Assembly (NCBI GenBank): GCA_964560005.1
Contig: CAZLKB010000002.1
Location: 128,381 to 192,380 of the forward strand
Origin: an uncultured Gammaproteobacteria bacterium
Lineage (GTDB): Bacteria > Patescibacteriota > Patescibacteriia > Patescibacteriales > GWC2-42-12
Direction: 5' to 3'
DNA length: 64,000 nucleotides
A program made the position numbers and the translations under genes. Numbering within the stretch: position 1 is the first letter of the stretch; the number at the start of each line of letters is the position of its first letter. Under the pieces are notes generated by a model. It was not told the origin of the DNA, did not search any database, and worked only from the letters and a program-made list of their open reading frames with translations. Below are positions 3,867 to 43,441 of this stretch, in pieces.

Positions 3867-3989
3867 AAATGAAAAATGTAAATCTCAAAGTGTAAAATGA
3901 CAATGTAAAATTTAAAATTGTAATTTAATAAATTTTGCATTTTAAACTGTCATTTTTAACTTTGATTTTTACACTTTAAACTTATTATT

Positions 3990-13877: not shown

Positions 13878-13934
13878 AATAAAAATTTTATAGCGCCCCG
13901 CAGTTTGCGGGGCTACGGCCATAAAATTTTTATT
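13878..13934. repeat. GC hairpin flanked by an AT inverted repeat
   Basis: AATAAAAATTTTAT (13878-13891) pairs with ATAAAATTTTTATT (13921-13934). These enclose the GCCCCGCAGTTTGCGGGGC hairpin (13895-13913). Confidence 0.7.
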
Positions 13935-16524: not shown

Positions 16525-16536
16525 ATTTAGATTGCA

Positions 16537-16568: not shown

Positions 16569-16716
16569 AATTTGGCAAGATAGGGTAAAATATGGTAGAA
16601 TAGTAAGGGTTAATCGGTTAATCAAATAAGCGGTTTTTATTTGTATAAGAATAAAATTAATTGTGCCAAAACTTAACGACTTTAATTGGCGAAATATATA
16701 AGAATTATATATATTT

Positions 16717-18195: not shown

Positions 18196-18325
18196 TACAA
18201 GTGTAAAATGAAAATCTGAAAATGCAAAATGACAATGCAAAAAGTAAAATACAAATTTCTAATTTTCCTATTTCTAATTATTGACAAATTTTTATTGTCT
18301 AATAGTCAATAATTAGAAATTAGTT

Positions 18326-18382
18326 ATTGGGATTTGACCCGCCTCGCGTCGACGAGCGACAGCGAGTCGAGGCGGGTTAGGT
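18326..18382. repeat. 57-bp GC-rich hairpin repeat, copy 1
   Basis: ATTGGGATTTGACCCGCCTCGCGTCGACGAGCGACAGCGAGTCGAGGCGGGTTAGGT is identical to 46897-46953. Stem: ACCCGCCTCG/CGAGGCGGGT. Confidence 0.85.
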
Positions 18383-18424
18383 TAATTAGGAATTAGAGTA
18401 ATTAGATATTTTGCATTTTTAACT

Positions 18425-18474
18425 GTCATTGCTCTGCAATGACCCCGCATCTGCGGGGTGCTAGCGGAGCTAGC
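18425..18474. repeat. Three-hairpin module, copy A
   Basis: GTCATTGCTCTGCAATGAC / CCCCGCATCTGCGGGG / GCTAGCGGAGCTAGC. The exact reverse complement occurs at 43299-43348. Confidence 0.85.
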
Positions 18475-18511
18475 ATTTTTAACTTTGATTTTTCAACTTT
18501 TAATTATTATT

Positions 18512-20221
18512 ATGTCAGAAGAAATCGCGGTTTTTGCGGAAACCAATTTTCGCAACCAATTTAGAAAATTCGGCATTAAACTGGACGATCGGCGCCGGCA
18601 TATGTATTTAGTGGGTAAAACCGGCATGGGTAAGTCCACGGTTTTGGAAAATTTAATTATTGACGATATCAGGCAGGGTAAGGGAGTCATGGTGGTGGAT
18701 CCTCATGGCGATTTGGCCGAAAAAATTATTGAGTATATTCCTACCAGCCGGATTAACGATGTAATTTATTTTAATCCGGCTGACATTGAATTCCCGATCG
18801 CCTTTAATGTAGTAGAGCAGGTAGAACCTCATTTAAGGCACTTGGTAGCCTCGGGCTTAATCGGAGTTTTTAAAAAGCTTTGGGCGGATTCCTGGGGACC
18901 CAGGCTTGAGTATATTTTACGCAATGCGATTTTGGCGATTTTGGATTATCCGGGATCCACTCTGCTGGCGATTACCAGAATGCTGGCGGATAAAAATTTT
19001 AGAAAAAAAGTTATTGAAAAAATTCAGGATCCGGTGGTTAAGTCTTTTTGGGTCAATGAATTCTCCAGCTACGCTAATAATTTCGCTTCCGAGGCGGTCT
19101 CGCCGATTCAAAATAAGGTTGGCCAGTTTTTATCCAGCTCGCTGATTAGAAACATTGTCGGCCAAGTAAAATCATCTATTGATTTAAGAGAGGTGATGGA
19201 TGGTGGAAAAATTTTAATTATGAACTTAAGCAAGGGTAGAATCGGCGAAGATAACTCCGCGCTATTAGGCGCGATGATGATAACCAAGACCCAATTGTCG
19301 GTTATGAGCCGGGTTGATATTTTAGAAAAAGATCGAAGAGATTTTTATCTTTATATTGATGAATTTCAAAATTTTACGACTGAAAGTTTCGCCAACATCC
19401 TTTCCGAAGCCAGAAAATACAGATTAAATTTGATTATGGCTCATCAATATATTGAACAGCTTGGCGAAATCGTCAAGCCGGCGGTTTTCGGCAATGTCGG
19501 CACCTTGATTGTTTTTAGGGTTGGCGCAACCGATGCTGAAGAATTGGTGAAAGAGTTTACCCCGGTATTTTTGGAGGAGGATTTGGTGAATTTATCAAAA
19601 TATGAATTTTACATTAAATTAATGATTGACGGCGTTTCGTCGGATCCTTTTTCCGCTCGCGGACTGCCCCCTTTGAACGAAGAAGAGAAAACCGATAACA
19701 AAGAAAAAGTTATTAAAGTCTCGCGCGAAAGATACGCCAAGCAGAGGGCAACGGTGGAAGATAAAATCATCCGCTGGCATACGAACAATGAAGAAATTGA
19801 AGATAATCATGATAAGACAACCGGAAAGCACGATCCCAGAGAGCAGTCCTGGAGAGCGGGCGAAAGGCGCAAGGATTCAATAAACGCGTCCTCGGCTTTA
19901 GCCGAAGCGGATGAGATTAAACCTCAATTGCGGCCGCGAAGGGATAATCAGCCTGATAAGCAGAAACACGAAGCTGTCTGCAGCCGTTGCGGCAGGTCAA
20001 CCCAAGTGTCATTTCTGCCGGACGGGATTAGGCCGATTTTTTGCAAAGACTGCCTGGTTCTGATTAAGGATGAAAAGAAGAAGGAAATTGAACTTAGATT
20101 AAGAGCTAAACAGCAAGAACTATCCGAAATAGGCTTAATTTCCGGCGGGAAAAGCGGCGAAAAAAATTCTACCGGGCGAAGCCGGCCTCTTGGCCGCGAT
20201 ATGAGCGGCGGGGTAGCTTAA
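18512..20221 (+). CDS. VirD4/TraD/HerA-like P-loop ATPase with C-terminal zinc-ribbon tail
   Basis: Walker A GKTGMGKST and Walker B LYIDEFQNF. The charged tail ends in CSRCGRSTQVSFLPDGIRPIFCKDC. The ATG at 18512 is preferred, because the tracked GTG start lies inside the repeat. Confidence 0.75.
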   Translation: MSEEIAVFAETNFRNQFRKFGIKLDDRRRHMYLVGKTGMGKSTVLENLIIDDIRQGKGVMVVDPHGDLAEKIIEYIPTSRINDVIYFNPADIEFPIAFNVVEQVEPHLRHLVASGLIGVFKKLWADSWGPRLEYILRNAILAILDYPGSTLLAITRMLADKNFRKKVIEKIQDPVVKSFWVNEFSSYANNFASEAVSPIQNKVGQFLSSSLIRNIVGQVKSSIDLREVMDGGKILIMNLSKGRIGEDNSALLGAMMITKTQLSVMSRVDILEKDRRDFYLYIDEFQNFTTESFANILSEARKYRLNLIMAHQYIEQLGEIVKPAVFGNVGTLIVFRVGATDAEELVKEFTPVFLEEDLVNLSKYEFYIKLMIDGVSSDPFSARGLPPLNEEEKTDNKEKVIKVSRERYAKQRATVEDKIIRWHTNNEEIEDNHDKTTGKHDPREQSWRAGERRKDSINASSALAEADEIKPQLRPRRDNQPDKQKHEAVCSRCGRSTQVSFLPDGIRPIFCKDCLVLIKDEKKKEIELRLRAKQQELSEIGLISGGKSGEKNSTGRSRPLGRDMSGGVA

Positions 20222-20277
20222 TTAACTGATTAAATAGCCGGAATTAAATAAAAAAATAACTTTTTCATTAATTTTAT

Positions 20278-21036
20278 ATGACGATAAAAACCAGTTTGCA
20301 TATTCATACCTTTGAAGACCAGGTGGAAGGCTATATGATTAAATATAATATTTATCAGCTTATAGACTGGGCGGAACAATTAAATTTTAAGGTTTTAGGG
20401 TTAACCTGCCATAAAAAATTCGTTTATCAAGAAGATTATGTTCAATATGCCGCGAAAAAAGGAATCCTGCTTTTATTAGGCGTAGAACTGCAGATGAAAA
20501 AAAAGGTTAAACGCAATGATTTGATAATTTTAAATATAGATCCCAAGGAAGCGGCCGAAGTAGAAAAAATAAACAGTTTTGAAAAGCTAGCGGACTATAA
20601 GAAAAAACACCAAGAAATTTTTATTTTAGCGCCGCACCCTTTGGCCACCAGGCTTATTTCCATGGGTAAAAAGAAATTAGTTAAGCATATTGAATTATTT
20701 GATGGCGTAGAGCATTGCTGGTGCTATTCGCGGCATTTGTTAAATTCTAATAAAAAAACCAAGAAAATAATTGAAAAATTCAACAAGCCTTTTTTGGCGA
20801 CTTCAGATGCCCATGTCTTGAAGTATTTTAACACCGATTATATTCTGATTGAATCAGACAGACTTGATCCGGGAAGTATTTTCTCTGCCATTAAGCGAGG
20901 TGATTTTACCAATGTCACCAAGCCTAAAAAGCTGTATCAGTTGTTTTGGTGCCTGGCTAGCCAGCAGATCAAGAAATATATTTTTTCTATCATTAAATAT
21001 AAACAAAATCAAAAAAAGCAGTTACGACTGGCCTAA
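20278..21036 (+). CDS. PHP-domain metal-dependent phosphoesterase
   Basis: N-terminal LHIHT motif, with later His/Asp ligands (APHP, SDAH) typical of the PHP fold. Confidence 0.6.
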   Translation: MTIKTSLHIHTFEDQVEGYMIKYNIYQLIDWAEQLNFKVLGLTCHKKFVYQEDYVQYAAKKGILLLLGVELQMKKKVKRNDLIILNIDPKEAAEVEKINSFEKLADYKKKHQEIFILAPHPLATRLISMGKKKLVKHIELFDGVEHCWCYSRHLLNSNKKTKKIIEKFNKPFLATSDAHVLKYFNTDYILIESDRLDPGSIFSAIKRGDFTNVTKPKKLYQLFWCLASQQIKKYIFSIIKYKQNQKKQLRLA

Positions 21037-21069
21037 ACTCTGGATTCCCATAATTTGCGCTCGATTAAT

Positions 21070-22617
21070 ATGGACTATTTAAAAATCAGCAAAGCTTCTG
21101 ACTTGACCGGTTCCAAGGATAGGAAGCTTTTTCGTATCCTGGAAATTTTGCCGGGTTTCTTATCTTGGGCGACGCTTATAATTTTACTCATACTTTCCTG
21201 GCTTAAACCCGCCTGGGTGGCTTATTTTATTATTGCTTTTGATGTCTATTGGCTGCTCTTGGTAATTTATTTGGGTATCAACCTTTTTGCCGCCAGCGTT
21301 AAGATGAAGCGAAATATGAAAATCGATTGGCGCCAAAGATGCGAGAAATTATCTGCCGGCGCCGGAATTAATTTTAATTGGTCAGAGGTGATTCATTTGA
21401 TTATTTTTCCAACTTATAACGAAAGTTTGGAGGTAATCAGACCCAGTTTCCAGGCGCTGATAAAAGACGGTTATCCGACCGATAAAATGATCGTGGTATT
21501 AGCTATAGAAGAGCGGGCGGGAGAAGAAGCTAAGGCCAGGGCTCGCATAATAGAGCAAGAATTTGGCGGTAAGTTCAAGCATTTTTTAATTTCCGTCCAT
21601 CCCGAGAACATCCCCGGCGAGTTAAAAGGCAAGGGAGCCAACCAGGCCTGGGCGGCCCAGCAGGCCAAGCTGAAAATTATAGATAAATTTAAATATGAAT
21701 ACGATAAGATATTAATCAGTGTTTTTGATATGGACACGGTCGTGATTCCGGGGTATTTCCATTGCTTAACTTATAAATTTTTAACGGTTGAAAATCCCTA
21801 TCGGGCAAGCTATCAGCCGATTCCAATTTATCATAATAATATCTGGCAAGCGCCTTTTTTTTCCAGAGTAGCCGCTTCATCCAACACCTTTTGGCAGATG
21901 ATGCAGCAGATCAGACAGGAAAAACTAGCAACTTATTCCTCGCATTCCATGACCTGGCGGGCCTTAGTTGATATTGATTACTGGTCAACTAATATGGTAA
22001 GCGAGGATTCGCGTATTTTTTGGCATTGCTATTGCTATTACCGAGGCGATTATAGGGTTGAACCTTTATATTTTCCGGTTTCCATGGATGTCTGCATGGA
22101 TTTGACCACCTGGCAAACCATGAGGAATTTATATAAGCAGCAAAGGCGCTGGGGCTGGGGGGTGGAAAATCTGCCGTACCTGATGTTTAACGCGATCAAG
22201 GAAAGAAAAATTTTACCGATGGGAAAGATGATCAATAAAATATTAGTCCAGCTTTACGGCTTTCATTCCTGGACTACCAACGCCTTAATTATCGGCGTTA
22301 TCGGCTGGATGCCGATGATTTTGGGCGGAGATAATTTTAACATTACCGTTTTATCCAGCAATTTACCGGTAGTATCGCGAACCCTGATGGTTGTCGCCAT
22401 GATCGGCATGGTCTTTTCGGCGATTATTTCAACCCTGCTCCTGCCCAAGCGTCCGGCGCGATATAGTATTATTAAAAGCGTTGTCATGGTATTGCAATGG
22501 CTTATTTTGCCGGTAAGTATCATTATTTTCGGGTCAATCCCGGCCCTGGAAGCGCAGACCAGATTAATGCTAGGCAAATACATGGGTTTTTGGGTAACGC
22601 CGAAAATAAGAAAATAA
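21070..22617 (+). CDS. Membrane-embedded processive family-2 glycosyltransferase (cellulose/chitin-synthase-like)
   Basis: N- and C-terminal TM bundles around a GT2 core. Has FDMD and the QQRRWGWG (QxxRW) motif. The ATG at 21070 is preferred. Confidence 0.75.
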   Translation: MDYLKISKASDLTGSKDRKLFRILEILPGFLSWATLIILLILSWLKPAWVAYFIIAFDVYWLLLVIYLGINLFAASVKMKRNMKIDWRQRCEKLSAGAGINFNWSEVIHLIIFPTYNESLEVIRPSFQALIKDGYPTDKMIVVLAIEERAGEEAKARARIIEQEFGGKFKHFLISVHPENIPGELKGKGANQAWAAQQAKLKIIDKFKYEYDKILISVFDMDTVVIPGYFHCLTYKFLTVENPYRASYQPIPIYHNNIWQAPFFSRVAASSNTFWQMMQQIRQEKLATYSSHSMTWRALVDIDYWSTNMVSEDSRIFWHCYCYYRGDYRVEPLYFPVSMDVCMDLTTWQTMRNLYKQQRRWGWGVENLPYLMFNAIKERKILPMGKMINKILVQLYGFHSWTTNALIIGVIGWMPMILGGDNFNITVLSSNLPVVSRTLMVVAMIGMVFSAIISTLLLPKRPARYSIIKSVVMVLQWLILPVSIIIFGSIPALEAQTRLMLGKYMGFWVTPKIRK

Positions 22618-22755
22618 ATTTTTAATTTTTAATTTTGTAATTTTATAAATAATTTTTAATGTCTAATTTTTAAATATTAAAAATTTAAACATTATTTAAA
22701 AATTATAAAATTATAAAATTAAAAATTGTTAAAGTATGATATAATATAACTAAAT
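22618..22755. repeat. AT-rich palindrome (AATTTTTAATTTTGTAATTTT word family)
   Basis: The left arm AATTTTTAATTTTGTAATTTTATA is mirrored by TATAAAATTATAAAATTAAAAATT. The left arm is nearly identical to that at 693-720. Confidence 0.65.
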
Positions 22756-23208
22756 ATGATCAAAGGCGTAATAATAAAAAAAATTTTTAAAAACGAAGAC
22801 GACCGAGGTTGGTTAGCGGAAATTTACCGCTGTGATGAGATTAGTTTTCAACCAGCCATGAGCTATGTTAGCGCCACTAAACCGGGAGTGATTCGCGGGC
22901 CGCACGAGCATAAATTCCAAAGCGATTGCTTTATATTTATTGGACCGGGAAATTTTGAGTTGCATCTTTGGGATGGTCGTAAAACCGGTGTAACCGATAG
23001 TGAACATATTAAAATATCAGTAGGAGAAAATAACCCGACGCTGGTAATTGTTCCTCCCGGAGTGGTGCACGGTTATAAATGCGTCGGGGAGCAAGACGGC
23101 TGGTGCTTGAATTTTCCGGACAAATTATATAGAGGCGAAGGCAAAAATAAAGAGCTGGACGAAATCAGGTGGGAAAACGACCCGGAGTCGCCGTATAAGA
23201 TAGGGTAG
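22756..23208 (+). CDS. rfbC: dTDP-4-dehydrorhamnose 3,5-epimerase-like cupin
   Basis: 150-aa cupin with DDRGWLAE, IRGPHEHK, VVHGY. Other rml genes lie in the same cluster. Confidence 0.6.
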   Translation: MIKGVIIKKIFKNEDDRGWLAEIYRCDEISFQPAMSYVSATKPGVIRGPHEHKFQSDCFIFIGPGNFELHLWDGRKTGVTDSEHIKISVGENNPTLVIVPPGVVHGYKCVGEQDGWCLNFPDKLYRGEGKNKELDEIRWENDPESPYKIG

Positions 23209-23347
23209 CAATTTTTAAATTTTATAATTTTCCCCCATCCGGAGGCAAGTAATTTTTAAATAATGCTTAAATTTTTAATATTTTAATATTAGGTAATTAA
23301 TAATTATTTATAAAATTACAAAATTAAAAAATTAAAAATTTTATTTT
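23209..23347. repeat. AT-rich palindrome of the same word family, with a small GC insert
   Basis: AATTTTTAAATTTTATAATTTT ... ATAAAATTACAAAATTAAAAAATTAAAAATT. The GC insert is CCCCCATCCGGAGGCAAG. Confidence 0.6.
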
Positions 23348-23749
23348 ATGTCTTGTATCTTTTGTAAAATTATCAATGGCGAAATCCCAAGCTATAAAGT
23401 ATATGAAGATGAATATACCCTAGCTTTTTTAGATATTGGCCCGGTTAATCCGGGACATACTTTAGTGATACCTAAAAAACATTTTGCCAATATTGAAGCA
23501 GCCGATGAAAAAACCCTGTGCCGGGTTATCAATACCGTGAAAAAAGTCGGTTTGAGCTTAAAGAAGAATTTGGGAGTGGCGGGATATAATATTTTGGAGG
23601 CTAATGATCCGGTCGCAGGCCAAAGCGTACCGCATCTGCATTTTCATCTAGTGCCAAGATCGGAAAATGACGGGTTAAACTTATGGCCGCAGAAAAAAAA
23701 TAAGGCAGGTGAAGCAGAAGAAATTTTAAAGAAAATTAAAATTATATAA
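23348..23749 (+). CDS. HIT family nucleotide hydrolase/transferase
   Basis: Histidine triad HLHFHLVP, and an N-terminal CIFCKI motif. Confidence 0.85.
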   Translation: MSCIFCKIINGEIPSYKVYEDEYTLAFLDIGPVNPGHTLVIPKKHFANIEAADEKTLCRVINTVKKVGLSLKKNLGVAGYNILEANDPVAGQSVPHLHFHLVPRSENDGLNLWPQKKNKAGEAEEILKKIKII

Positions 23750-24360
23750 TGACAGCCGCTACCTTTTCTACAATTTTGTCATGGGTTATAGCCAGCGGTT
23801 ATACAATGATTTTTGCCGCTATTATTGTCGGCGGCCCGGTGTTTATTTCCGCCGCCGCTTTTGCCGCGGCCTTGGGTTATTTTAATGTTTATATAATTTT
23901 TTCTCTGGCTTTTTTCGGAGAAATGGCGGTTGATATCCTGTTATTTTTAATCGGAGATTTTAGCCGCGCTCCGCTGGTGGAAAGGTTCGGCCATTGGTTC
24001 GGCTTAACCAAGAAAAGGATTTTAAAGCTGGAAAAATTATTAATTAAACATAGCTGGAAAACCCTGTTAATCATTAAATATTCTCCCATTATACCGATGC
24101 CAGGCTTTGTCATCGCCGGCGCCGCCAAACTGCCGTTTAAAAGATTCTTTTATATTTTATTGGTTCTGAGCCTGCCTAAGGCCGTTTTTTTTACTCTGAT
24201 CGGCTATTATTTCGGCATGGCTTATCAGACCTATGCCAAATATTTTTATTATAGCGAATATTTTATTGTCATTATAATCATTATTTTTATAGCGATTAAT
24301 TATTTATTCAGCCGTCTTTCAAAAAAAATCGCTGAATCCGCTGAAGAAATTGAATCATAA
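23749..24360 (+). CDS. DedA/VTT-domain membrane protein
   Basis: 203-aa polytopic membrane protein with DedA-like layout. Its start overlaps the HIT gene stop (ATAATG). Confidence 0.6.
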   Translation: MTAATFSTILSWVIASGYTMIFAAIIVGGPVFISAAAFAAALGYFNVYIIFSLAFFGEMAVDILLFLIGDFSRAPLVERFGHWFGLTKKRILKLEKLLIKHSWKTLLIIKYSPIIPMPGFVIAGAAKLPFKRFFYILLVLSLPKAVFFTLIGYYFGMAYQTYAKYFYYSEYFIVIIIIIFIAINYLFSRLSKKIAESAEEIES

Positions 24361-24363
24361 TTT

Positions 24364-25551: not shown

Positions 25552-26318
25552 AATTAAGCATCGTTATACCCGCCTACAACGAAGATAAGTATATAGGGAA
25601 ATGCATAGAATCAATCTTCAGCGCCATGGCGGGCAGCCGCTATGAGGTTGAAGTGATTGTGATTAATAATGCCAGCACGGACAAAACCAGAGAGGTGGCT
25701 TTGAGCTATAGCCGGGTTAAAGTTTTTGATGAACTGAAAAAGGGGACTAATCAAGCCCGCCAGCTGGGGTTAATTAAATCCACCGGAGATTTAATAGCCA
25801 ACATTGACGCCGATAACATGATTAGCCGAGATTGGCTAAATACTGTTTTTAAAGAATTTAGTAATAATCCCAAGCTCGTTGCCCTAAGCGGTCCGTACAT
25901 ATTCTATGATGTTTCCCCGATACAACGGTTCACCGCTAAGTTGTATTACTGGCTGGCTTATCCGGTCTATGTTATAAATAACAGATTGTTTAAAAAGGGC
26001 GGGGCAGTCATGGGCGGAAATGTGGTAATAAAAAAATCCGCTTTGGAACAGATTGGCGGCTACAACACGGCTTTAACATTTTATGGCGACGATACGGATA
26101 CGGCTATCCGTTTAAGCAAGGTTGGATTGGTAAAATTTAATTACAAATTTTTAGTTCAATCTTCCGGGCGCAGGCTGAAAGATGAAGGCATAATCAGCGC
26201 CGGCTGGCGTTATTTAATAAATCACCTTTCCATGTCGTTTTTTAAAAAGCCATATTATAACGCGAAAGAGGATCTCCGCTATAAATACAAAAAAACTATT
26301 GCGAAAATTAAACAGTAA
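25548..26318 (+). CDS. Family-2 glycosyltransferase
   Basis: LSIVIPAYNE start and a DAD (DxD) motif. Confidence 0.8.
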   Translation: MKLSIVIPAYNEDKYIGKCIESIFSAMAGSRYEVEVIVINNASTDKTREVALSYSRVKVFDELKKGTNQARQLGLIKSTGDLIANIDADNMISRDWLNTVFKEFSNNPKLVALSGPYIFYDVSPIQRFTAKLYYWLAYPVYVINNRLFKKGGAVMGGNVVIKKSALEQIGGYNTALTFYGDDTDTAIRLSKVGLVKFNYKFLVQSSGRRLKDEGIISAGWRYLINHLSMSFFKKPYYNAKEDLRYKYKKTIAKIKQ

Positions 26319-26319
26319 A

Positions 26320-26504
26320 GTTTGCCGGCCTTAAGTATTTATTTATCGCTTCGGATGAAATTTAAGTATTTTTTCTTAAAATTATAATAAACTGGGTCTG
26401 GATAATTTTAAGAAAAAATAATACAATTTCACCACCGCTCTTTTTTTTAGCTCAGAGGAAGGCACCGAGGAGCCGCTCTAAATAAATACCTAAGGCCGGC
26501 AAAG
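26320..26504. repeat. Long-range inverted repeat with nested palindrome, upstream of rfbB
   Basis: GTTTGCCGGCCTTAAGTATTTATTTA (26320-26345) pairs with TAAATAAATACCTAAGGCCGGCAAAG (26479-26504). Inner pair: CTTAAAATTAT/ATAATTTTAAG. Confidence 0.7.
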
Positions 26505-26537
26505 AATAGCGCAAATTTTATAATTAAGCATATTTTT

Positions 26538-35569: not shown

Positions 35570-36085
35570 TTATTGACTTTTGTTTATCTTCTTTAAAATT
35601 ATTTTTATGGCGTCATCTGGATTTCTAGATGAATTATCTATTTTGAATTCGTTTTTTATCGAGTCTCTTTTAATAAGTTGCTTATTCCAATTTAATGCTT
35701 CGCTAGCATTTCTAAAACCAGAATCTCGCGTATCATCCAAAACTCGATTAGACAATTCATTGTCATCATTAACCACTAAACTGAAAATTAAATAGTTTGT
35801 CGGATCAAAAATTTTTGGAATTTCTATAATTCGCCTGTCCAGAAGGTCGTTAACAATCACATAAGGGTATTTATTCTTAATATAGTTTTTGAGAATGAAT
35901 ACAAGATTTTCAAATGACATCTGCTCTTCTTTGTCGCTCTTATTGCTCCAAGATTTATTTAAGTGAAATTCCCTAATCCATCCGAAATCTATTAAAACAG
36001 AATTGTCCAATTTAATTTTCAGCTGATTTGAAATAGTAGTTTTCCCACTGCCAGGTGCTCCAGCTATAAAAATAATTTTTGTCAT
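35570..36085 (-). CDS. P-loop NTPase / small-molecule or nucleotide kinase-like protein (array gene)
   Basis: Walker A IAGAPGSGKTT at the N-terminus. 171 aa, of AAA_33/kinase-like size. Confidence 0.6.
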   Translation of the reverse strand: MTKIIFIAGAPGSGKTTISNQLKIKLDNSVLIDFGWIREFHLNKSWSNKSDKEEQMSFENLVFILKNYIKNKYPYVIVNDLLDRRIIEIPKIFDPTNYLIFSLVVNDDNELSNRVLDDTRDSGFRNASEALNWNKQLIKRDSIKNEFKIDNSSRNPDDAIKIILKKINKSQ

Positions 36086-36163
36086 ATTTATTGAAATTTT
36101 TAGTTTAGAACTACAGAGCTCATTTTTATTTCCGATAACGTATCCGAATATCGGAAGTTTGAC

Positions 36164-36391
36164 TTATTTTTTATCGTTCTCAAAAAATTCACTTTCTTTT
36201 AATCCGGATTGGAGCAAAATTGATTGAAATGTGCCATAAGGAATTTCTTTTTTACTCATTTTGATAGTGACATTTTTCGTCGGGCTGCCAGTTTTGCGAA
36301 AACGCGCATGTGACCCCTTTTGACGGACAAAAAAGAAGCCCTTTTGGCGAAGGACTCTTAATATCAAACTTAGTACAACCGGTTTAGGCAT
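36164..36391 (-). CDS. hicA: HicA-family mRNA interferase toxin
   Basis: 75 aa. LRQKGFFFVRQKGSHARFRK is the YcfA/HicA signature. It overlaps hicB by 8 nt. Confidence 0.8.
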   Translation of the reverse strand: MPKPVVLSLILRVLRQKGFFFVRQKGSHARFRKTGSPTKNVTIKMSKKEIPYGTFQSILLQSGLKESEFFENDKK

Positions 36392-36602
36392 ATTTAAAAG
36401 TAAGCGGTATTAGATCTGGTCGCTCCACTTTATTAATTTTAGAGGCAGGTATATCTTCTAAATGAAGTTCTAAGGCTTCTTGCAAGCATTCCAGGGCTTC
36501 TTTTTTGGTATCGCCGAAGCTGGAAACCGCGGTGTTGAGGTTCCAGGCTACATAGTATTTACCCTCTTTCCAAACTACATTTTTTAAGTCAATTTTGCGC
36601 AT
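36384..36602 (-). CDS. hicB: HicB-family antitoxin
   Basis: 72 aa. YYVAWNLNTAVSSFGDTKEALECLQEALELHLE-like UPF0150/HicB N-domain pattern. It sits upstream of, and overlaps, hicA. Confidence 0.75.
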   Translation of the reverse strand: MRKIDLKNVVWKEGKYYVAWNLNTAVSSFGDTKKEALECLQEALELHLEDIPASKINKVERPDLIPLTFKYA

Positions 36603-36791
36603 ATTGTTATATAATTATGCTTTTATCATACTAAAAGAGAAAAAATAAGTCAAATTTGGATGAGGGGCGAGCCGAGCTCCGAACCCGATATTCGGTGTTA
36701 GGCGAGGGTTCTTTTGCCCTTCCTTAATGCAATTATATCAAATAAAAGAGCAAAAGAAAGCGCAGCGTCCCCTTGAGTTGCCAGCCCGCTG

Positions 36792-37220
36792 TTACCTTTC
36801 TTCAACAGAAACACATTTATTTGATATACATTTTGCGTCGGGGCCAGAACCACAATCATTAATAGAAAGAGAACATTTCTGGTTATATATATCCATTTTT
36901 TTATAAAATTGTTCTTTGTCGATTTGTTTATTGATATAGTGATAACATCCAAATTCTATATAAGTCCCTCCTAGCATAATTACATCACAGTCTGAATCAG
37001 TTTGGCAATAGTTTGTTTTTTCTAAATCATTTTCAATCTCGTTATGTAAATCCTCGCAAACAAACTCACCCGATGGTTGATTGATAATAGGCAATTTAAT
37101 AGATGTTTTTTCAATTAATTCATTAGATTGTGGTTCAGTAAATTTATTTATTAACAGAAATGTGGCTGCAGAAATTAAAATTACTAAAGTAATTATCAAA
37201 TAAATGTGTTTTGTGCTCAT
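36792..37220 (-). CDS. Membrane-anchored Cys-rich exported protein (array gene)
   Basis: N-terminal TM anchor, then 9 Cys in about 90 residues (CEDL, YCQTDSDCD, FGCYHY, KCSLSINDCGSGPDAKCISNKC). Confidence 0.5.
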   Translation of the reverse strand: MSTKHIYLIITLVILISAATFLLINKFTEPQSNELIEKTSIKLPIINQPSGEFVCEDLHNEIENDLEKTNYCQTDSDCDVIMLGGTYIEFGCYHYINKQIDKEQFYKKMDIYNQKCSLSINDCGSGPDAKCISNKCVSVEER

Positions 37221-37354
37221 ATTGATAGAATTAATTATATTAGAATATTTAATAATTTCGACCTGAAAGGCGGGCTGGCAATTTCGTCCTAACGTTTCGG
37301 CGTATCTGAAGTTTCCGTTTTTGTGATATTTGATTAATAAAAAATGACAAATCT

Positions 37355-37876
37355 TTATTTTTTGCTCAAAGACGAGTTCATTATTTCTATGGTCAGCTTG
37401 ATCTGTCCTTTTGGGTCATTTAACATATAACCGCCATATTTTAATTCATCAAATCTACCATGAGCAACGTGGTTTCTGAGATCGTTAATTTTCCAAAGCA
37501 TTGTAATATAATTTTTATCCTTGGGCATAGTGGCATAATGTTTTTCAATTAATGATATTTTTGACCCAAAAGGTAATTTGTCAAGCATCCCGTTAATCAT
37601 AGGATTTTCAATTCCAAACATTTTATTCTTCTCAACAAAACTAATAATGTCGTTAATTTCACGTTCCATAAAATAGGTAATCCAAAAGACAAATTCTACT
37701 GCTTCAAATTGATCGTCTGTTATATTAAAACGTTTTTGAGCAAAAAGTTTGCCCATTTTTAATTCTTTTAGACCATTAAAATCAACCCCATGTTTTTCAA
37801 AAGTCTCAATGGCTTTATCTGGGTCAGAACTTAGAAATGCCATTATTTTATCGTCTAAAGATTTGTCATTTCCCAT
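37355..37876 (-). CDS. HEPN-motif protein (Abi-like candidate RNase)
   Basis: 173 aa, all-helical character. INDLRNHVAHGRF contains the Rx4H HEPN motif in its RNxxAH form. Confidence 0.5.
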   Translation of the reverse strand: MGNDKSLDDKIMAFLSSDPDKAIETFEKHGVDFNGLKELKMGKLFAQKRFNITDDQFEAVEFVFWITYFMEREINDIISFVEKNKMFGIENPMINGMLDKLPFGSKISLIEKHYATMPKDKNYITMLWKINDLRNHVAHGRFDELKYGGYMLNDPKGQIKLTIEIMNSSLSKK

Positions 37877-37933
37877 ATTTTAAATCACAAAAAAAGGAAA
37901 TTTGCGTGAGCAAGCGTTAAGAATAAAATTATC

Positions 37934-38308
37934 TTAATTATTTTTAAACTTTTTCATTTTACTCCGCATAACGAATATAAGAACAATCCATAAAAGTGCA
38001 AGGCTGAATATAGTATCAAAAACAACCATCATCAAAGCCGCAAAACTGTCCCCAAAAACTGAAAAAATTGCCCCTAAAAGAAGTGATATATAACCGGTAG
38101 TTACTCCTTGGGCTGACATAAATTCTCTTGTCATCATATCTATTATGCTTAATATGGTAAGGGCAATAAATATTCTAAAAAATATACGATATTTTTTATA
38201 TTTATCTGTGTCAGAAATTTTTTCAGTTTTTGCTTCCACAATTTTTTGTTTTTCAGCCGCTTTTTCATTTTCCTCTTTGTATAAATCCTTCATTTTTACT
38301 TCGCTCAT
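37934..38308 (-). CDS. Small membrane protein (charged N-terminus plus about 3 TM helices), upstream partner of the HEPN gene
   Basis: 124 aa. It lies 57 nt upstream of the HEPN ORF on the same strand. Confidence 0.5.
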   Translation of the reverse strand: MSEVKMKDLYKEENEKAAEKQKIVEAKTEKISDTDKYKKYRIFFRIFIALTILSIIDMMTREFMSAQGVTTGYISLLLGAIFSVFGDSFAALMMVVFDTIFSLALLWIVLIFVMRSKMKKFKNN

Positions 38309-38403
38309 ACTTTTTTATTTAAAAATAATTAAGATAATTTTATTTAGCTTGCGAACCAGATACGCCGTGTTAGGCGATGTATTTGTAAAAAATTATTTTA
38401 TTC

Positions 38404-38877
38404 TTATTTCGCTTGCTTACTTTTTAGGTCATATAAGGTCGCAATGACTATAAAATGAAATAGAAAAATTATAAGAGGAATTTGAAAATTTTGATAAATT
38501 AAAAAGATTACGGCATAAATAACAAAAGCTTGAATTAAAAAATAAATATTGTTTGAACCGTCTATTAACGTAAAATACCATTGCTTTTTTTCTTTCCCAA
38601 TATTTTGAACAGCAGCTTTTTGAAGCGAATTTATACCATCATTTATTTTAAGTATATAATCGGCAAGCATAATAGGTATTAAAGACAATAAAAAAGTTAT
38701 CAAAATTTTCAAATTCCCTATGTTTGATTTAGGTATAATTTCTTCACTAAATGTAGCTATAACTAACAGGGCTATCATTAGTTCCATAACATAAATTATA
38801 GTTCTAAACCTTTCGCCAATTAAATCATAGCATTTACCACCGAAGAATTTTAATTTTTCTATTTTATCGTTATCCAT
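38404..38877 (-). CDS. Polytopic membrane protein, unknown function (array gene)
   Basis: 157 aa with about 4 TM helices. Confidence 0.5.
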   Translation of the reverse strand: MDNDKIEKLKFFGGKCYDLIGERFRTIIYVMELMIALLVIATFSEEIIPKSNIGNLKILITFLLSLIPIMLADYILKINDGINSLQKAAVQNIGKEKKQWYFTLIDGSNNIYFLIQAFVIYAVIFLIYQNFQIPLIIFLFHFIVIATLYDLKSKQAK

Positions 38878-38904
38878 AATTAATAATTTTTTACAAATAT
38901 TTCG

Positions 38905-39037
38905 TCCTAACGTTTAGGCATATCTGAAGTTTGCCGAAATGAAATGAAGGCAAATTTGGGTGAAAGAATTTTTTACTCCTTATTAAAATACTATTGATGA
39001 AAAATTCTTGAACCAGATATGCCTTGTTATGTGATGT
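38905..39037. repeat. attC-like paired site, unit 5 (133 bp, compact)
   Basis: TCCTAAC-GTTT-AGGCATATCTG-AAGTTT (38905-38932) pairs with GAAC-CAGATATGCCT-T-GTTATGTGATGT (39010-39037). Internal hairpins: TTTGCC/GGCAAA and AGAATTTTT/AAAAATTCT. Confidence 0.65.
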
Positions 39038-39096
39038 AAATTTTTTTATCTCGTTTTTATAAATCAACTATGTCTTTTTGAAAGAAAATTTGATTT

Positions 39097-39930
39097 TTAA
39101 TTTGGCGAAGGGCAGAGGGGTTGGGGGTGAATGCCCTGAGCCAAATTACTTTGTTTTTGTTCTTGCTGTTGAAATAAAGTAGGACAACTATTATATTTTT
39201 TGATTCGATTTATTATTAGCTTGTGGTAATCTTTGTTTATTTCAAAACCGACATACTGTCTATCATTTGCCAAGCATGCAATAGCCGTTGTTCCCGTTCC
39301 CATAAATGGATCAAAAACAATTCCATTTTTTGGACAACTTGCTTTTACCATTCTTTCTATTATTTCTAATGGTTTTTGTGTTGGATGGTTTTCTCTTTCA
39401 GGGTCTTGAGCATGTATTCTTGATGTACTCCATAAATCTTTTGGATTGTAGCCCATTTCTAACCATTTTTTCCCAACAAATATAGACCTAGTTCGTGCTT
39501 TTTTTGTTTTCTCGTCATAAGGAATTCTTATACTGTCTAAATCAAAATAATAATCATTATCTTTAACAAAAAAACCTATATTATCATGAACGGAAGAAAA
39601 TTTTCGCGTTGAACCACCCATGCTTGGCACACGTCTGTCCCAAATTATTTCATTAACCATTCGTAATTTCTTTTTTAAATATACAAAAATTTCTGGAGAA
39701 TATTGCCAGCTTAAAAAAATGTAAAAACTGCCGGTCTTTTTTAGTTTAGGTAAAACTGCATCAATCCATTGATAAGTCCAATTCAGATAATCTTCAGCTG
39801 ATTTTTGATCTGAATCATTGCCATAATCTTTACCTAAACAATAAGGAGGATCAGTCAATATCAAATCAATAGAATTATCTTCTATTTTATCAATTCCCAA
39901 TAAAATATCTTCATTAAAAATTTTATTCAT
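39097..39930 (-). CDS. DNA methyltransferase, beta-class N6-adenine or N4-cytosine
   Basis: Motif IV LILTDPPY lies near the N-terminus. HPTQKP is present. Motif I FDPFMGTGTT lies near the C-terminus. Confidence 0.9.
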   Translation of the reverse strand: MNKIFNEDILLGIDKIEDNSIDLILTDPPYCLGKDYGNDSDQKSAEDYLNWTYQWIDAVLPKLKKTGSFYIFLSWQYSPEIFVYLKKKLRMVNEIIWDRRVPSMGGSTRKFSSVHDNIGFFVKDNDYYFDLDSIRIPYDEKTKKARTRSIFVGKKWLEMGYNPKDLWSTSRIHAQDPERENHPTQKPLEIIERMVKASCPKNGIVFDPFMGTGTTAIACLANDRQYVGFEINKDYHKLIINRIKKYNSCPTLFQQQEQKQSNLAQGIHPQPLCPSPN

Positions 39931-39932
39931 AC

Positions 39933-40532
39933 CTATTTCAAAATTATACTTTTTGATTTTTCTTTTAACATTTTTAAAAATTCATCTCGTGTCCTATATA
40001 CTTTATCGTGTCTATATGTGGCTTGTATTTTATCATTTCTTGGATTTACATATATTGGCAAAAATTGTGGTGAGAAAACCTCTAAATAATCTTTAACAAA
40101 ACTTATTTTTATATTTTCAAATTTAATACCAAAACAAGCATATATTAAAGTGTAATTTTTATTAACACTGTATTGAAAATAAAGTTTTTCTACCGCAGAA
40201 ATATCATTTTTATTTTCTTTACCTTCGATATTGTGAATTTTTACATTTATAAAATAGCTTTTGCCTTTATAAATAATTTCGCAATCGTGTAGCGAGGTAT
40301 CTGGAAAATCAAAATTAACTTCATCTAAGCCAAGTTTTTTAGCGTTAAATTTAGTTTGTTGTGTAATAACCTGCTCAACTAGCCAACTTACCGATCTAGT
40401 GTGTGCTTTAAGTCCGTAAGGTAAAATTTTGCTATCTGTAATATCAAAACTAGGCAGTATCGTTAGAAGTTTTATGTAAATATTTTTTACAAATTCTAAA
40501 TCTTTTTCTATTTCTTTTATTTCGTTTTTCAT
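39933..40532 (-). CDS. Candidate type II restriction endonuclease (partner of the methyltransferase)
   Basis: 199 aa, ending 2 nt before the MTase start. It has a possible PD...(D/E)xK-like stretch (FPDTSLHDCEI...INVK). The assignment rests on context. Confidence 0.5.
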   Translation of the reverse strand: MKNEIKEIEKDLEFVKNIYIKLLTILPSFDITDSKILPYGLKAHTRSVSWLVEQVITQQTKFNAKKLGLDEVNFDFPDTSLHDCEIIYKGKSYFINVKIHNIEGKENKNDISAVEKLYFQYSVNKNYTLIYACFGIKFENIKISFVKDYLEVFSPQFLPIYVNPRNDKIQATYRHDKVYRTRDEFLKMLKEKSKSIILK

Positions 40533-40570
40533 AATAAAGTTTGGTAAAATTAGCGATTTGTTATAATTCT

Positions 40571-40579
40571 ATTATAGCA
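40571..40579 (-). promoter_or_regulatory. Extended -10 element (TGCTATAAT on the minus strand) upstream of the R-M pair
   Basis: Plus-strand ATTATAGCA reads as TGCTATAAT on the minus strand, about 35 nt upstream of the REase ATG. Confidence 0.4.
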
Positions 40580-40767
40580 AAATTTTTTATAATAATCCAT
40601 TTTCGTAGCGAAGCGGAGAAAATACCTTATACCCCCCTCTTTAAAAAATAAAAATCAAATTTTCGTCGTATTTTAAAGCACAAAACTTGAAAATACCACT
40701 AAGATAAAAAAATTTATTTCATATAACTCCTCTTTATACGAATAAAATATATAAAATTCGCAGTAAT

Positions 40768-40795
40768 TTGTATATTATGCGAAATATGGTATAAT
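40768..40795 (+). promoter_or_regulatory. Candidate promoter of the recombinase gene
   Basis: TTGTAT (40768-40773), 16-nt spacer, TGGTATAAT extended -10 (40787-40795). Confidence 0.45.
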
Positions 40796-40839
40796 TTTTA
40801 GTAAGTAAAGTTTTCTAATAATATTATAGCTTAATATAT

Positions 40840-41660
40840 ATGCAATTAAAAGAGTTGTTAGAGAGAATTGAAAACGAGCTTAAGCTTAGGAATTACAGCC
40901 GTAAAACCATTAAGAGCTACTTGATTTGTTTGACTGATTATTTCCGCTATATTAAAAATGTGGTGAAAAATCCTGATATCGGCCTGATTAAAAATTATCT
41001 TTTGGAAAAGCAGGGTCGGGGGCAGTCTTCGCAGACGATTAACCTTCATCTTAATGCCATAAAGTATTTTTATCGGGAAGTTTTTAAAAATAATATCCCA
41101 ATAGAAATTAAATTCGCTAAAGTATCAAATAAACTGCCGATCGTTTTGTCCAGAAATGAAATAGAAAAAATAATCGGTTCAATCGGCAACCGTAAGCATA
41201 AACTGCTGATCGCCCTAGCCTATGGAGCCGGCCTGAGGGTGAGCGAGTCCATAAATTTAAAAATTAAAGATGTGGATTTATCGGAATTAGTGATCCATCT
41301 TAAGGACGCTAAGGGCGGCAAAGACCGGCTAACCATAATTCCCGAAAGCCTAAAATCAGGGCTGAATGAAATTATGGCCCTGCGCGACAAAAATGATTAT
41401 GTCTTCGCCAGCGAGCGCGGCGGCCGGTTAACCGATCGGTCGGCGCAAAAAGTATTTGAAAATGCTTTAAAAAATGTCATATTAATAAGGAGGCCACTTT
41501 CCATTCCCTAAGGCACAGCTTCGCCACTCATCTATTGGAGAACGGCGTTGATGTGCGCTACATACAGGAACTCTTAGGTCACGCCAATATCAGGACTACG
41601 CAAATTTACACTAAAGTGACTAATCCAAGCTTAAAGAAAATAAAAAGCCCGCTGGACTGA
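40840..41660 (+). CDS. IntI/XerCD-like tyrosine recombinase, interrupted by a -1 frameshift at an A6 tract
   Basis: Frame 1 (40840-41511) gives [51 protein letters not shown]. The -1 frame (41460-41660) gives [15 protein letters not shown]...[16 protein letters not shown], carrying the HxxR, H and Y catalytic residues. The switch must occur at 41469-41475. Confidence 0.8.
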
Positions 41661-41693
41661 CCGGATCGGCGCGGGCGCAAAATAATTTTTTGG

Positions 41694-42101
41694 TTATGAG
41701 TTTTTGTTGAATATATATTTTTGCCAAAAATAAAAAACCAGCAAAACGGCAAAAGCTTGGAGTACATCCGTAAGATCGGGTAGGCCGGATAAGAAAGCTA
41801 TTAAAAGTATAAATATCGGAGTCAGGAATAAGACAGCGTCGGCTATGATTTTATCAAAAAAAGAAAGATAAATTACAATATCCAGATTATCATCTTTAAT
41901 CCTTTTTTTGAATTCCCGCTTATTGATATTAAATTTTATTGAGATTAAAACTAAAATAACCAGAAAAGGCAATAAGAATTTGACCATCTCGCCGAGACTT
42001 AGGATGTTGATGTATCTGATTATAAAAATAAGGCAAAAGCAAAGAAATAATATATACAGTATAAAATCAATAAAATCAACCAGCATGTCTTTTGCGTTCA
42101 T
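41694..42101 (-). CDS. Small polytopic membrane protein, unknown function
   Basis: 135 aa, about 4 TM helices, very AT-rich. Confidence 0.45.
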   Translation of the reverse strand: MNAKDMLVDFIDFILYILFLCFCLIFIIRYINILSLGEMVKFLLPFLVILVLISIKFNINKREFKKRIKDDNLDIVIYLSFFDKIIADAVLFLTPIFILLIAFLSGLPDLTDVLQAFAVLLVFYFWQKYIFNKNS

Positions 42102-42194
42102 ATTTTATATTTAATTCAATAAATTTTGATAAATAAACCGTCTTTATTGCTATCGCCGTTTATTTAATTATAGCAAAATTGACCGGAGGATACA

Positions 42195-43262
42195 ATGTTA
42201 AAAAGAATTGCCGTCATTTTGATAAATTATAAAAACTACGCCGAAGAATTCCTGCCGACTTGCTGGGCCGGCCTGATTAAGCAGGATTATGCCGGCGAGA
42301 AAAAAGTTTTTATTGTTGACAATGAAAGTTCGGCGGAAAGCCTGGCTCTGCTTAAGCGCGTCGCGCCAAGCGCGGAAATAGTAATAAATAAAGACAACGA
42401 TGGGTTTGCTAAAGGCAATAATGACGCTATCAAGCTGGCTTGCCGGCAGAAATTTGACTATATAATTCTATTTAACATGGACGCGGAAGCGGCCGGCGAT
42501 TGCTTCAGCAAATTGGTGGCTGCGGCCGAAAGCGAAAAGGAAATCGGCGCGGCGCAGGCCAGGCTGATGATGTTTAGCGATAAAAATAAAATCAACAGCC
42601 TGGGTAATGTGACGCATTTTTTAGGATTTGGCTATTCCGAAGGAAACGGCCAGGCCTATCGGGAGACGGCGGGCGGCAGCGAGCCCCTGGCGACGAAAGC
42701 AATTTGCTACCCTAGCGGAGCCGCGGTTTTATTTAAGGCCGAAGTTCTGGAAAAAGCCGGTTTGTTTGATGAAAAGTTTTGGATGTATAATGAAGACCAG
42801 GATTTAGGCTGGCGGATTTGGCTGGCGGGCTATAAATGCGTTTTAGCTCCGGACGCCTTGGCTTACCATAAATATGAGTTTAAACGCAGTATCAAGAAAT
42901 ATTATTATCTGGATAGAAATCGGATCATGGCTATGCTTAATAATTATCATTGGGCAACATTAATTTTAATTTTTCCGGCTTTTCTCGCCATGGAAATCGG
43001 CTTGATATTTTTTTCAATTAAAGGCGGCTGGTTTAAGGAAAAATTAAAGGTCTATGCCTATTTTTTAAGCTTAAAGAATTGGCTCGGAATTTTCGCCTCA
43101 AGGCGCCGGGCGCAAGATTTAAGAAAAATTAAAGATAAAGAAATTATTAAATTCTTCAGCGGCCGAATCTGGTATCAGGAGATCGGGGAGTGGCGCTTAA
43201 GAATTGCCAATTTGTTTTTTAACGCTTATTGGCGGATAATCAAGGTTTTTATTTGGTGGTAG
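42195..43262 (+). CDS. Family-2 glycosyltransferase
   Basis: IAVILINYKN, VDNES, FAKGNN, NEDQDLGWR. A GGAGGA sequence lies 4 nt upstream of the ATG. Confidence 0.8.
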   Translation: MLKRIAVILINYKNYAEEFLPTCWAGLIKQDYAGEKKVFIVDNESSAESLALLKRVAPSAEIVINKDNDGFAKGNNDAIKLACRQKFDYIILFNMDAEAAGDCFSKLVAAAESEKEIGAAQARLMMFSDKNKINSLGNVTHFLGFGYSEGNGQAYRETAGGSEPLATKAICYPSGAAVLFKAEVLEKAGLFDEKFWMYNEDQDLGWRIWLAGYKCVLAPDALAYHKYEFKRSIKKYYYLDRNRIMAMLNNYHWATLILIFPAFLAMEIGLIFFSIKGGWFKEKLKVYAYFLSLKNWLGIFASRRRAQDLRKIKDKEIIKFFSGRIWYQEIGEWRLRIANLFFNAYWRIIKVFIWW

Positions 43263-43441
43263 CGAATAATGTAAAATGTAAATTTTAAAATAAAAAATGC
43301 TAGCTCCGCTAGCACCCCGCAGATGCGGGGTCATTGCAGAGCAATGACAATGCAAAATTTAAAATTTAGAATTTAGAATTGTTAATTTTACATTTTTAAC
43401 TGTCATTTTTCATTTTGATTTTTTAATTTTTCATTTTTATT
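43263..43441. repeat. Composite AT-rich palindrome with embedded three-hairpin module
   Basis: TGTAAAATGTAAATTTTAAAA words are mirrored by TTTTACATTTTTAAC... The module at 43299-43348 is inserted. Confidence 0.65.
43299..43348. repeat. Three-hairpin module, copy A in inverted orientation
   Basis: GCTAGCTCCGCTAGCACCCCGCAGATGCGGGGTCATTGCAGAGCAATGAC is the exact reverse complement of 18425-18474. Confidence 0.85.

Follow-up and report, generated by a model that had tools for sequence, protein, structure and literature searches.

Why should a short cluster of three GC-rich hairpins, set in the AT-rich spacers between bacterial genes, keep all of its stems paired while its sequence changes? The question is raised by a 64-kb stretch of DNA from contig CAZLKB010000002.1 (the window; all coordinates are positions in it unless a locus is named, and names of the form L0xx denote collected related loci), which contains three copies of this three-hairpin module. 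The reading that we favour, with a probability of about 60%, is that the module is a miniature non-coding hairpin repeat, which is gained and lost as a unit at the site TGTCATT^TT in AT-rich arms with a 7-nt periodicity. These arms probably flank operons as inverted repeats in an uncultivated Kuenenbacteria-like bacterium of the Candidate Phyla Radiation (CPR) and in its relatives.

Three copies of the module in the window

The copies of the module are the following:
18431..18477, plus strand: type A module, a 47-nt insertion GCTCTGCAATGAC CCCGCATCTGCGGGG TGCTAGCGGAGCTAG CATT
18425-18443, 18442-18459 and 18459-18475, plus strand: hairpins of this type A module, with the preceding GTCATT included
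18424..18430, plus strand: target heptamer TGTCATT of the spacer arm, the insertion lying directly 3' of it
43296..43342, minus strand: second type A module, an exact inverted copy in the stop-proximal arm, after TGTCATT at 43343-43349 (minus strand)
29266..29319, plus strand: type B module, ATGATTGCT-TT-AGCAATCAT / CATCCCGCA-AGA-TGCGGGATG / ATGCCAGC-CGA-GCTGGCAT

A first-pass annotation of this DNA had described the sequences at 18425-18474 and 43299-43348 as exact inverted copies. They are indeed reverse complements without a mismatch, and the identity is even longer than claimed, spanning 57 nt (18424-18480 versus 43293-43349), beyond which the outer AT-rich arms of the two copies are only about 65% identical. 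A chance origin of a 57-nt exact inverted repeat within 64 kb is impossible. The type B copy, preceded by TTTATGATT and with GGCATT at its end, retains the three-hairpin layout and differs by one compensated pair in each stem; the three paired differences reported earlier (C:G to G:C in stem 1, C:G to T:A in stem 2, and T:A to C:G in stem 3) were verified. Every module folds into its hairpins on both strands equally well, as DNA or as RNA, with z values of -5.0 to -7.6 relative to dinucleotide shuffles. All copies had furthermore been placed in AT-rich composite palindromes just upstream of genes. The palindromic spacers were found as described, but not all of the copies are just upstream of a gene: about 31 nt separate the inverted copy at 43293-43349 from the stop codon of the gene 42195-43262, and the start codon at 43442 is 93 nt away from it; the type B copy is separated by 127-130 nt from the start codon at 29450.

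Copies in related genomes and metagenomes

In total, 48 copies of the module, corresponding to 27 distinct variants, were obtained from Kuenenbacteria-like CPR genomes and metagenomes. A first pattern, which placed no constraint on the left arm of stem 1 or on most of stem 3, was run on a collection of species-representative genomes. Six of its ten matches were discarded as GC-rich proteobacterial chance matches, and the four true copies belong to Candidatus Kuenenbacteria GW2011_GWA2_42_15 (two) and to other metagenome-assembled genomes (two). A second pattern, without constraints on stem 3 or on the outer pairs in the other two stems, retrieved 41 metagenome contigs, and every module in them lies in an AT-rich spacer. 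Copy number is three in the window and at least 10 in one metagenome, all copies being intergenic. Module matches were found neither in a pattern scan of IMG/VR nor by blastn against phage and plasmid collections.

When about 455 kb of related DNA were searched by cmsearch with a covariance model built from the module itself, full copies scored at least 67.8 bits and solo hairpins at most 27.8 bits; nothing fell in between, and no diverged or decayed full copies were detected. The comparison with Rfam that had been recommended was run, and the module matches no curated covariance model: there was no match at gathering score in the whole window, and the permissive mode, applied to three loci and to both spacers, gave only chance-level matches far under the gathering scores. 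In the literature on Kuenenbacteria repeats, CPR palindromes and the motif TGTCATTGCGAG, no earlier description was found.

The short-read Logan contigs L001 (window 29402-33405) and L057 (ending at about 43322), both of the same organism as the window, stop at or inside modules and GC hairpins. These breaks are consistent with multi-copy repeats that disrupt assembly.

The type A module is an insertion at a fixed site in the spacer arm

Type A modules measure 47 nt, composed of 43 nt and a 4-nt CATT repeat, and their insertion site, TGTCATT^TT, is fixed within a recurrent AT-rich arm. The consensus of this arm, shared by the window and the related Ga0172379 population, is AATTTTRCATTTT..A. 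TGTCATT TT.AC.TTTGAGATTTACATTTTACATTAT, followed by the gene boundary. Twelve filled arms were compared with 14 empty ones, whose flanks are alike. In 12 out of 12 filled arms, TGTCATT is followed by the 47-nt sequence GC-TCT-GCAATGAC CCCGCA..TGCGGGG TGCTAGCGGAGCTAG CATT, so that CATT is found at both junctions; because these four nucleotides are repeated, the phase of the junction is ambiguous and may lie anywhere from TGT^CATT to TGTCATT^. Mean pairwise identity is 97.1% for the 47-nt core versus 61% for the 30 nt to its left and 80% for the 30 nt to its right, and empty arms are as similar to filled arms as filled arms are among themselves. The orientation of the module relative to the arm is also fixed, its 3' end pointing toward the nearest gene boundary, either a start or a stop codon, at a median distance of 35 nt.

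Several copies per genome are nearly identical, loops 1 and 3 included, against divergent flanks. These two loops are invariant in all 12 type A copies and variable across the whole family. Loop 2 is specific to the source, with TC in the window and AA or TT in metagenome contigs (CAAAT, CATTT); in one metagenome, eight copies have AAA there while two copies that match them everywhere else have TTT, and the TTT form looks like an in-place flip of the hairpin, which is an event at the DNA level. Taken together, the near-identical cores, the invariant loops 1 and 3 and the flip of loop 2 argue for recent copying or conversion of DNA and not for constraint.

In each of nine spacers checked by hand, one arm was filled and its partner was empty, and none of the collected loci carries two modules. 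The module-bearing spacers of the window, together with one in which both arms are empty and which serves as a reference within the genome, are:
18196..18511, no strand assigned: composite palindromic spacer; start-proximal arm filled, stop-proximal arm empty with TGTCATT at 18228-18234 (minus strand); GC hairpin X (18337-18378) is also present, inside a nested palindrome about 125 nt in length
43263..43441, no strand assigned: composite palindromic spacer; stop-proximal arm filled, start-proximal arm empty with TGTCATT at 43401-43407 (plus strand)
29132..29449, no strand assigned: composite palindromic spacer between rmlD and rmlA; empty site at 29146-29152 (minus strand), type B module and GC hairpin Y at 29340-29389
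3867..3989, no strand assigned: spacer of this arm family with both arms empty, TGTCATT at 3896-3902 (minus strand) and 3948-3954 (plus strand)

Orthologous spacers without the module

Homologues of the TrwB-like protein encoded in the window (78-82% identity) led to four syntenic loci. The spacer between the DUF8128 and TrwB-like genes of L053 has the same arms as the window and lacks the 47-nt module, so it is an orthologous empty site. The two spacers, with flanks that are otherwise well conserved, differ by exactly two indels, namely the 47-nt module and the nested palindrome of about 125 nt that carries GC hairpin X. Other relatives have different contents at this position: a palindrome of another family in L054, a doublet resembling a miniature inverted-repeat transposable element (MITE) with termini TGTCATTGCGAG...CTCGCAATGACA in L055, and a plain spacer of 87 nt in L056. 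The rmlD-rmlA spacer, which contains the type B module and measures 318 nt in the window, is reduced to 12 nt in L055 and 33 nt in L056, and the spacer between two GT2 genes in the syntenic locus L058 is a 79-nt palindrome of another heptamer family, without the module. In the reverse situation, L031, which is syntenic to window 12235-17295 with 69-80% identity, carries a type A module that is lacking in the matching spacer of the window (12854-12953). Overall, the orthologous spacers of relatives without the module are 12-122 nt long, and the covariance model found no module in the 75 kb of L053-L056. The discrete indel seen between arms is also present at an orthologous site.

These data have to be weighed against the possibility that the module has no mobility of its own. 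It would then be carried along only within the larger arm or spacer, or would be older than that element and frequently deleted between the CATT repeats, and its near-invariance would reflect a function as a DNA site, for instance as a cruciform or as a palindrome bound by a protein. In support of this, the whole spacer at 43265-43435 is 86.5% identical to a spacer at a non-orthologous site and in opposite orientation (L028 5385-5549), the site within the arm is fixed, a single arm is filled in the nine hand-checked spacers, and the sequences of the stems, beyond their pairing alone, are conserved across lineages with differing arms. However, the boundary is sharp, with cores that are 97% identical next to arms of 61-80% identity, and the loops are identical as well, although they are free to vary across the family. 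Furthermore, loop lengths of 2-5 nt alter the spacing between half-sites, which makes the module poorly suited to dimeric binding of duplex DNA, and a C:T mismatch in stem 3 persists in the lineage of L017, L023 and L039. We consider this explanation improbable.

Stem pairing is maintained across variants

The earlier annotation had argued that three compensatory changes in three stems reflect selection on structure, in RNA or in single-stranded DNA, and that simple decay of a repeat would not give such a pattern. We examined pairing in an alignment of the 27 distinct variants. Five inner pairs in stem 1 and six in stem 2 were predetermined by the search patterns and are uninformative. The best partition, with stems of 6 + 8 + 6 bp, has 98.1% of cells paired, while only 28-41% were paired in a control in which the 3' partners were slid, and none of 500 shuffles matched the observed pairing or covariation score. 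The 8 + 6 + 6 bp partition given previously fits less well (95.9%), because the outer pair 6:25 of stem 1 is unpaired in 13 out of 27 variants; this pair was dropped, since column 25 pairs with column 42 instead. Neighbouring stems have one to three junction bases in common.

The main covarying pairs are precisely the three that had been singled out from the window alone. Pair 8:23 occurs as GC (12 variants), CG (7), AU (6), GU (1) and UA (1) and is never unpaired; pair 25:42 as UA (17), CG (8) and UG (2), again without unpaired cases; and pair 46:58 as CG (15), UA (7), AU (2) and GC (1), with two variants unpaired. Changes from GC or CG to AU are also present at pairs 44:60 and 45:59. As the pair states combine into 16 distinct haplotypes, several independent events must have taken place. 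Stem 3, which was not constrained by the search, is 94% paired, and mean entropy is higher in the loops (0.95 bits) than in the free stem columns (0.63 bits). Counted by cells, 36 compensated double changes stand against 10 unpaired and 5 wobble cells, so that disruptions are clearly rarer than compensations, the outcome named earlier as refuting (disruption as frequent as compensation) did not arise, and simple decay is excluded. The non-canonical cells (5 G:U, 4 A:C or C:A, 4 C:U, 1 A:A and 1 G:G) show no strand bias. As for disruptions, besides the stem-3 mismatch mentioned above, L007 has two mismatches, L044 has a hybrid arm, and L006, L014, L028 and L049 have one mismatch each. Contact between loop 1 (TCY) and loop 3 (RGA), as kissing loops or in an alternative pairing, was also considered and rejected, as no covariation was seen in the alignment checked by eye.

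Variants differ between genomes and all three stems are nevertheless paired, which confirms that the pairing is truly maintained. This part of the earlier proposal stands; its suggestion of RNA is taken up below.

Module orientation does not follow transcription

Could the stems belong to a cis-acting RNA structure in read-through transcripts, kept by selection on RNA folding and serving for protection of mRNA ends, as an RNase processing site or in termination through hairpin 3 and a U-run? The strong covariation in the stems is in line with this, ATTTT is usually found directly 3' of hairpin 3, and a scan for terminator patterns flagged hairpin 3 at 29298-29322 (plus strand) and at 43318-43294 (minus strand). 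Moreover, entire module-bearing spacers fold as one long stem from which the module and other GC-rich hairpins branch off (z -5 to -8.6), palindromic stems can fold whichever way the module is oriented, and stabilization of mRNA by repetitive extragenic palindromic (REP) elements is known. Against it, the orientation of the module relative to transcription is not conserved: in 32 distinct genomic contexts, both flanking genes are opposite to the module strand in 15 and on the same strand in 9. The terminator-like site at 43318-43294 lies on the strand opposite to the flanking genes, the same-strand candidate terminator is located about 33 nt before the next start codon and far from the upstream stop codon, no site was flagged at 18150-18560, and where the module is in the opposite orientation, no U-run follows. 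In addition, G:U and A:C mismatches are balanced, the module is missing from orthologous spacers of relatives, the identity of loops 1 and 3 within genomes indicates recent copying rather than constraint, and Rfam gave no match. On balance, we regard a cis-acting RNA as unlikely.

An independent small RNA gene, with its own promoter and with hairpin 3 and the U-run as terminator, would account for the intergenic location, for the compact and stable structure, for the T-run after many copies and for the occurrence in either orientation to the neighbouring genes. Nevertheless, no promoter-like site was found directly upstream of the module, the loops are its least conserved part, the T-run is absent in several lineages (L013, L015, L017 and L026), no Rfam family was matched, and the module is an indel of 47 nt whose site within a repeat is fixed; this explanation is very improbable. 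Orientation and position speak against both the small-RNA reading and that of a simple terminator.

Altogether, the occurrence in either orientation, the balanced mismatches, the equal folding of both strands, the indel at a fixed site, the absence from orthologous spacers and the identity of the loops argue against a strand-specific RNA. The data do not support a role of the module upstream of genes as a regulatory RNA or as a cis-regulatory element, and any effects on transcripts, for instance as hairpins in untranslated regions, would be secondary. The case also calls for caution, since convincing covariation in a repeat does not by itself signify a functional RNA.

A probable DNA repeat that may depend on folding

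The simplest candidate for what keeps the stems paired is a DNA repeat that relies on folding for its propagation or stability. The module would have spread through some form of DNA copying. One option is a trans-acting enzyme recognizing folded single-stranded hairpins, as in transposition by REP-associated tyrosine transposases (RAYT) or of the insertion sequence (IS) type IS200/IS605; another is short-patch conversion between arms. Pairing of the stems would persist since the folded DNA is the substrate of the copying process, and/or template switching within quasi-palindromes may restore complementarity. Template-switch correction of quasi-palindromes is a route to compensatory changes that needs no selection.

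Several observations weigh against a mobile repeat. No transposase, Pfam Y1 included, was detected among the 30 window proteins scanned, and tblastn of the 455 kb with approximate IS200/RAYT-like queries gave no match, which is a weak negative. The module has neither terminal inverted repeats nor a GTAG/CGTC tag. Both of its orientations are found within one region of constant GC skew, and this does not fit a strict lagging-strand insertion of the IS200/IS605 type. For type B and the other variants, the search for empty sites gave no convincing matches, and the empty sites of type A could in principle be precise deletions between CATT repeats and not sites that were never filled. Lastly, the conservation of the module across lineages with differing arms could also reflect function, and that of stem cores 1 and 2, being fixed by the search patterns, is no independent evidence.

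A more specific mechanism is conceivable. Because CATT is repeated, some of the pairs in hairpin 1 or 3 must use bases of the target (GT or CATT of TGTCATT), and across lineages, the base adjoining ATT co-varies with its partner base in the element (TC/GA, TG/CA, TA/TA, TT/AA). Base pairing may be how the 43-nt element selects its target, which would make it a minimal single-stranded-DNA element with a guide logic like that of IS608 and a putative enzyme, although we consider this a long shot.

Comparison with known repeats

Among known systems, REP elements and REPINs resemble the module in being short extragenic palindromic repeats with many copies, in forming genome-specific sequence populations, in their hairpins, which occur in single-stranded DNA or mRNA, and in compensatory stem changes, which are common in REPINs (PMC3116915). 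REP elements carry a conserved tetranucleotide, GTAG or CGTC, at one end of the palindrome (PMC3733652), and this tag is found at neither end in the 27 variants of the module, where the left junction is T-N-ATT|GC and the right end GCTRGCA(TT). The module also differs from them by its three different tandem hairpins in place of one palindrome, by the lack of inverted doublets such as those of REPINs (one arm is filled in each of the nine checked spacers), by a CPR host and by its single fixed site inside another repeat. No RAYT was found in the sampled DNA.

The GC clusters of mitochondria offer another parallel. In yeast, GC42 elements, a close analogue, are 42-bp GC-rich hairpins in AT-rich spacers with a 2-nt target, the loops of GC clusters change more than the stems, and clusters merge (PMC4478555); fungal and sponge mitochondria contain comparable GC-rich elements, known as double-hairpin and repetitive hairpin elements (PMC2800124). 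They share with the module a size of about 40-50 bp, the GC-rich hairpins within intergenic DNA that is very AT-rich, a short target or repeat at the flanks, presence and absence at homologous sites, loops that are more changeable than stems and several coexisting families that merge into multi-hairpin clusters. Unlike them, the module is bacterial and not organellar, is unrelated in sequence and has a 7-nt target inside a repeated arm.

Palindrome-associated transposable elements (PATEs), derived from IS200/IS605, likewise lack terminal inverted repeats, have hairpins at or near both ends and insert directly 3' of a short conserved sequence in a fixed orientation to the target; in the module, hairpins 1 and 3 are at the ends, and the insertion always follows T-N-ATT (TGTCATT in type A). 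Its terminal hairpins, formed partly by target bases, recall the guide-target pairing of IS608. The differences are its size (43-47 nt versus 100-400 nt), the 4-nt direct repeat, the lack of an evident replication-strand bias and that no related full-length IS is known, none encoding TnpA/TnpB being present in the collected loci.

Classical MITEs (Correia, RPE, BOX and similar) are also non-coding, dispersed and intergenic, and can supply promoter, terminator or stop-codon sequences. For type A, a target-site duplication and an empty orthologous site of the MITE kind were found (CATT at both junctions, the 14 empty arms and L053). However, the module is much smaller, and there is no inverted-repeat relationship between its ends, (C)ATTGC... 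and ...GCTAG(CATT). The surrounding arms and the E2/E3 doublets of related loci fit this class better than the module does. Judging from sequence comparison, the arms and composite palindromes would behave like MITE-type insertions in otherwise short spacers, with the module as a smaller insertion nested in them; we favour this view of the arms as well.

Spacers built in layers

The window is bacterial, with genes mostly on the plus strand that include those for ribosome recycling factor, ribosomal proteins L10 and L7/L12, RmlA, RmlD, GT2 glycosyltransferases and a TrwB-like ATPase; its nearest protein relatives are labelled Patescibacteria or Falkowbacteria. Genes within operons abut or overlap. 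At operon boundaries, the spacers are AT-rich (6-36% G+C), 100-340 nt long and made of 7-nt-periodic repeats, and the stretch after a stop codon is the reverse complement of the stretch preceding the next start codon.

Operons bracketed by arms in this way were observed at window 685-853, 3867-3989, 11668-11809, 12854-12953, 22618-22755, 23209-23347, 46701-47036, 47610-47719 and 56031-56137, and at L058 1970-4354. The heptamer families of the arms are genome-specific: AAAATGN in the window, AAAGTTA in L058 and AATGACN in L020 and L027. An arm can provide a stop codon (29129-29131), and right arms contain TTGATT or TTGAGA, followed after 17-18 nt by TATTAT overlapping the annotated ATG. The heptamer arms may be MITEs or functional boundary elements.

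In related loci, the same kinds of spacers are occupied by MITE-like inverted doublets, which are absent from the window. Their termini are TGTCATTGCGAG...GAAGCAATCTCACG and CGTGAGATTGC...CTCGCAATGACA (L030 7029-7180 and 9593-10010; L047 4147-4290; L031 4280-4460; L055 882-992 and 9884-10000; L053 9059-9171; L013 3804-3950), and their TG...CA ends have TGTCATTGC and GCAATGAC in common with hairpin 1 of the module.

Other nested elements were seen in the spacers. A second nested palindrome, with AATTAG-type arms and GC hairpin X (GACCCGCCTCG...CGAGGCGGGT) as its centre, is present at window 18308-18430 and 46879-47001 (89% identical) and missing from the orthologous spacer of L053. Solo hairpins with the stem of hairpin 2, CCCCGCA-loop-TGCGGGG, are located at the apices of other AT-rich palindromes (L048 5351-5415; L039 3723-3785; L041 578-665; L017 10475-10557), and some of them resemble bidirectional terminators; the one of the window is:
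13895..13913, no strand assigned: solo hairpin GCCCCGCA-GTT-TGCGGGGC, resembling hairpin 2 of the module and located at the apex of a different AT-rich palindrome

The single hairpins of the module may therefore also circulate separately. Further tandem mini-hairpins rich in GC, TCCGCC-NNN-GGCGGA beside TCGGCC-NNN-GGCCGA in either order, were found at window 55454-55483, L051 3001-3097 and L054 8131-8423. Those of the window are enclosed by CCCCC/GGGGG upstream of rplJ (55506), and the Rfam model of the L10 leader did not match at 55454-55483. Two repeat pairs, 45563-45692 with 53410-53539 (88% identical) and 26314-26385 with 54062-54133 (71% identical), consist of long palindromes, AT-rich around a GC-rich centre, that lie upstream of the genes at 45720, 53570, 26538 and 54232.

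The region 33036-41700 has a low G+C content (26-36%) and contains small minus-strand open reading frames of unknown function, as well as genes for a DNA methylase and a zeta-toxin-like NTPase. Its spacers bear recurring imperfect repeats (e.g., at 35067, 37281 and 38899), and next to these genes, in divergent orientation, is a frameshifted tyrosine recombinase (40840-41511 and 41535-41660; Phage_integrase, Phage_int_SAM_4), which is intact (252 aa) in the syntenic L058. The layout is integron-like.

Significance

What is new here is a miniature hairpin repeat of an already known general type in an unusual CPR host and in a nested setting. The genomes of CPR bacteria (Patescibacteria) are small and usually deemed streamlined. 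In the genomes studied here, the spacers between operons are layered like nested dolls, with genome-specific AT-rich palindromic arms, MITE-like inverted doublets and 47-nt GC-rich mini-hairpin insertions, layers for which no description was found in Rfam or in the literature searched. On the practical side, the module repeats break short-read assemblies of such genomes. In a broader sense, the genome-specific heptamer arms with their nested GC hairpins could be lineage-specific punctuation of operons and not just junk DNA. The filled and empty sites, some of them orthologous, constitute a natural experiment on how very short hairpin DNA spreads and keeps its structure.

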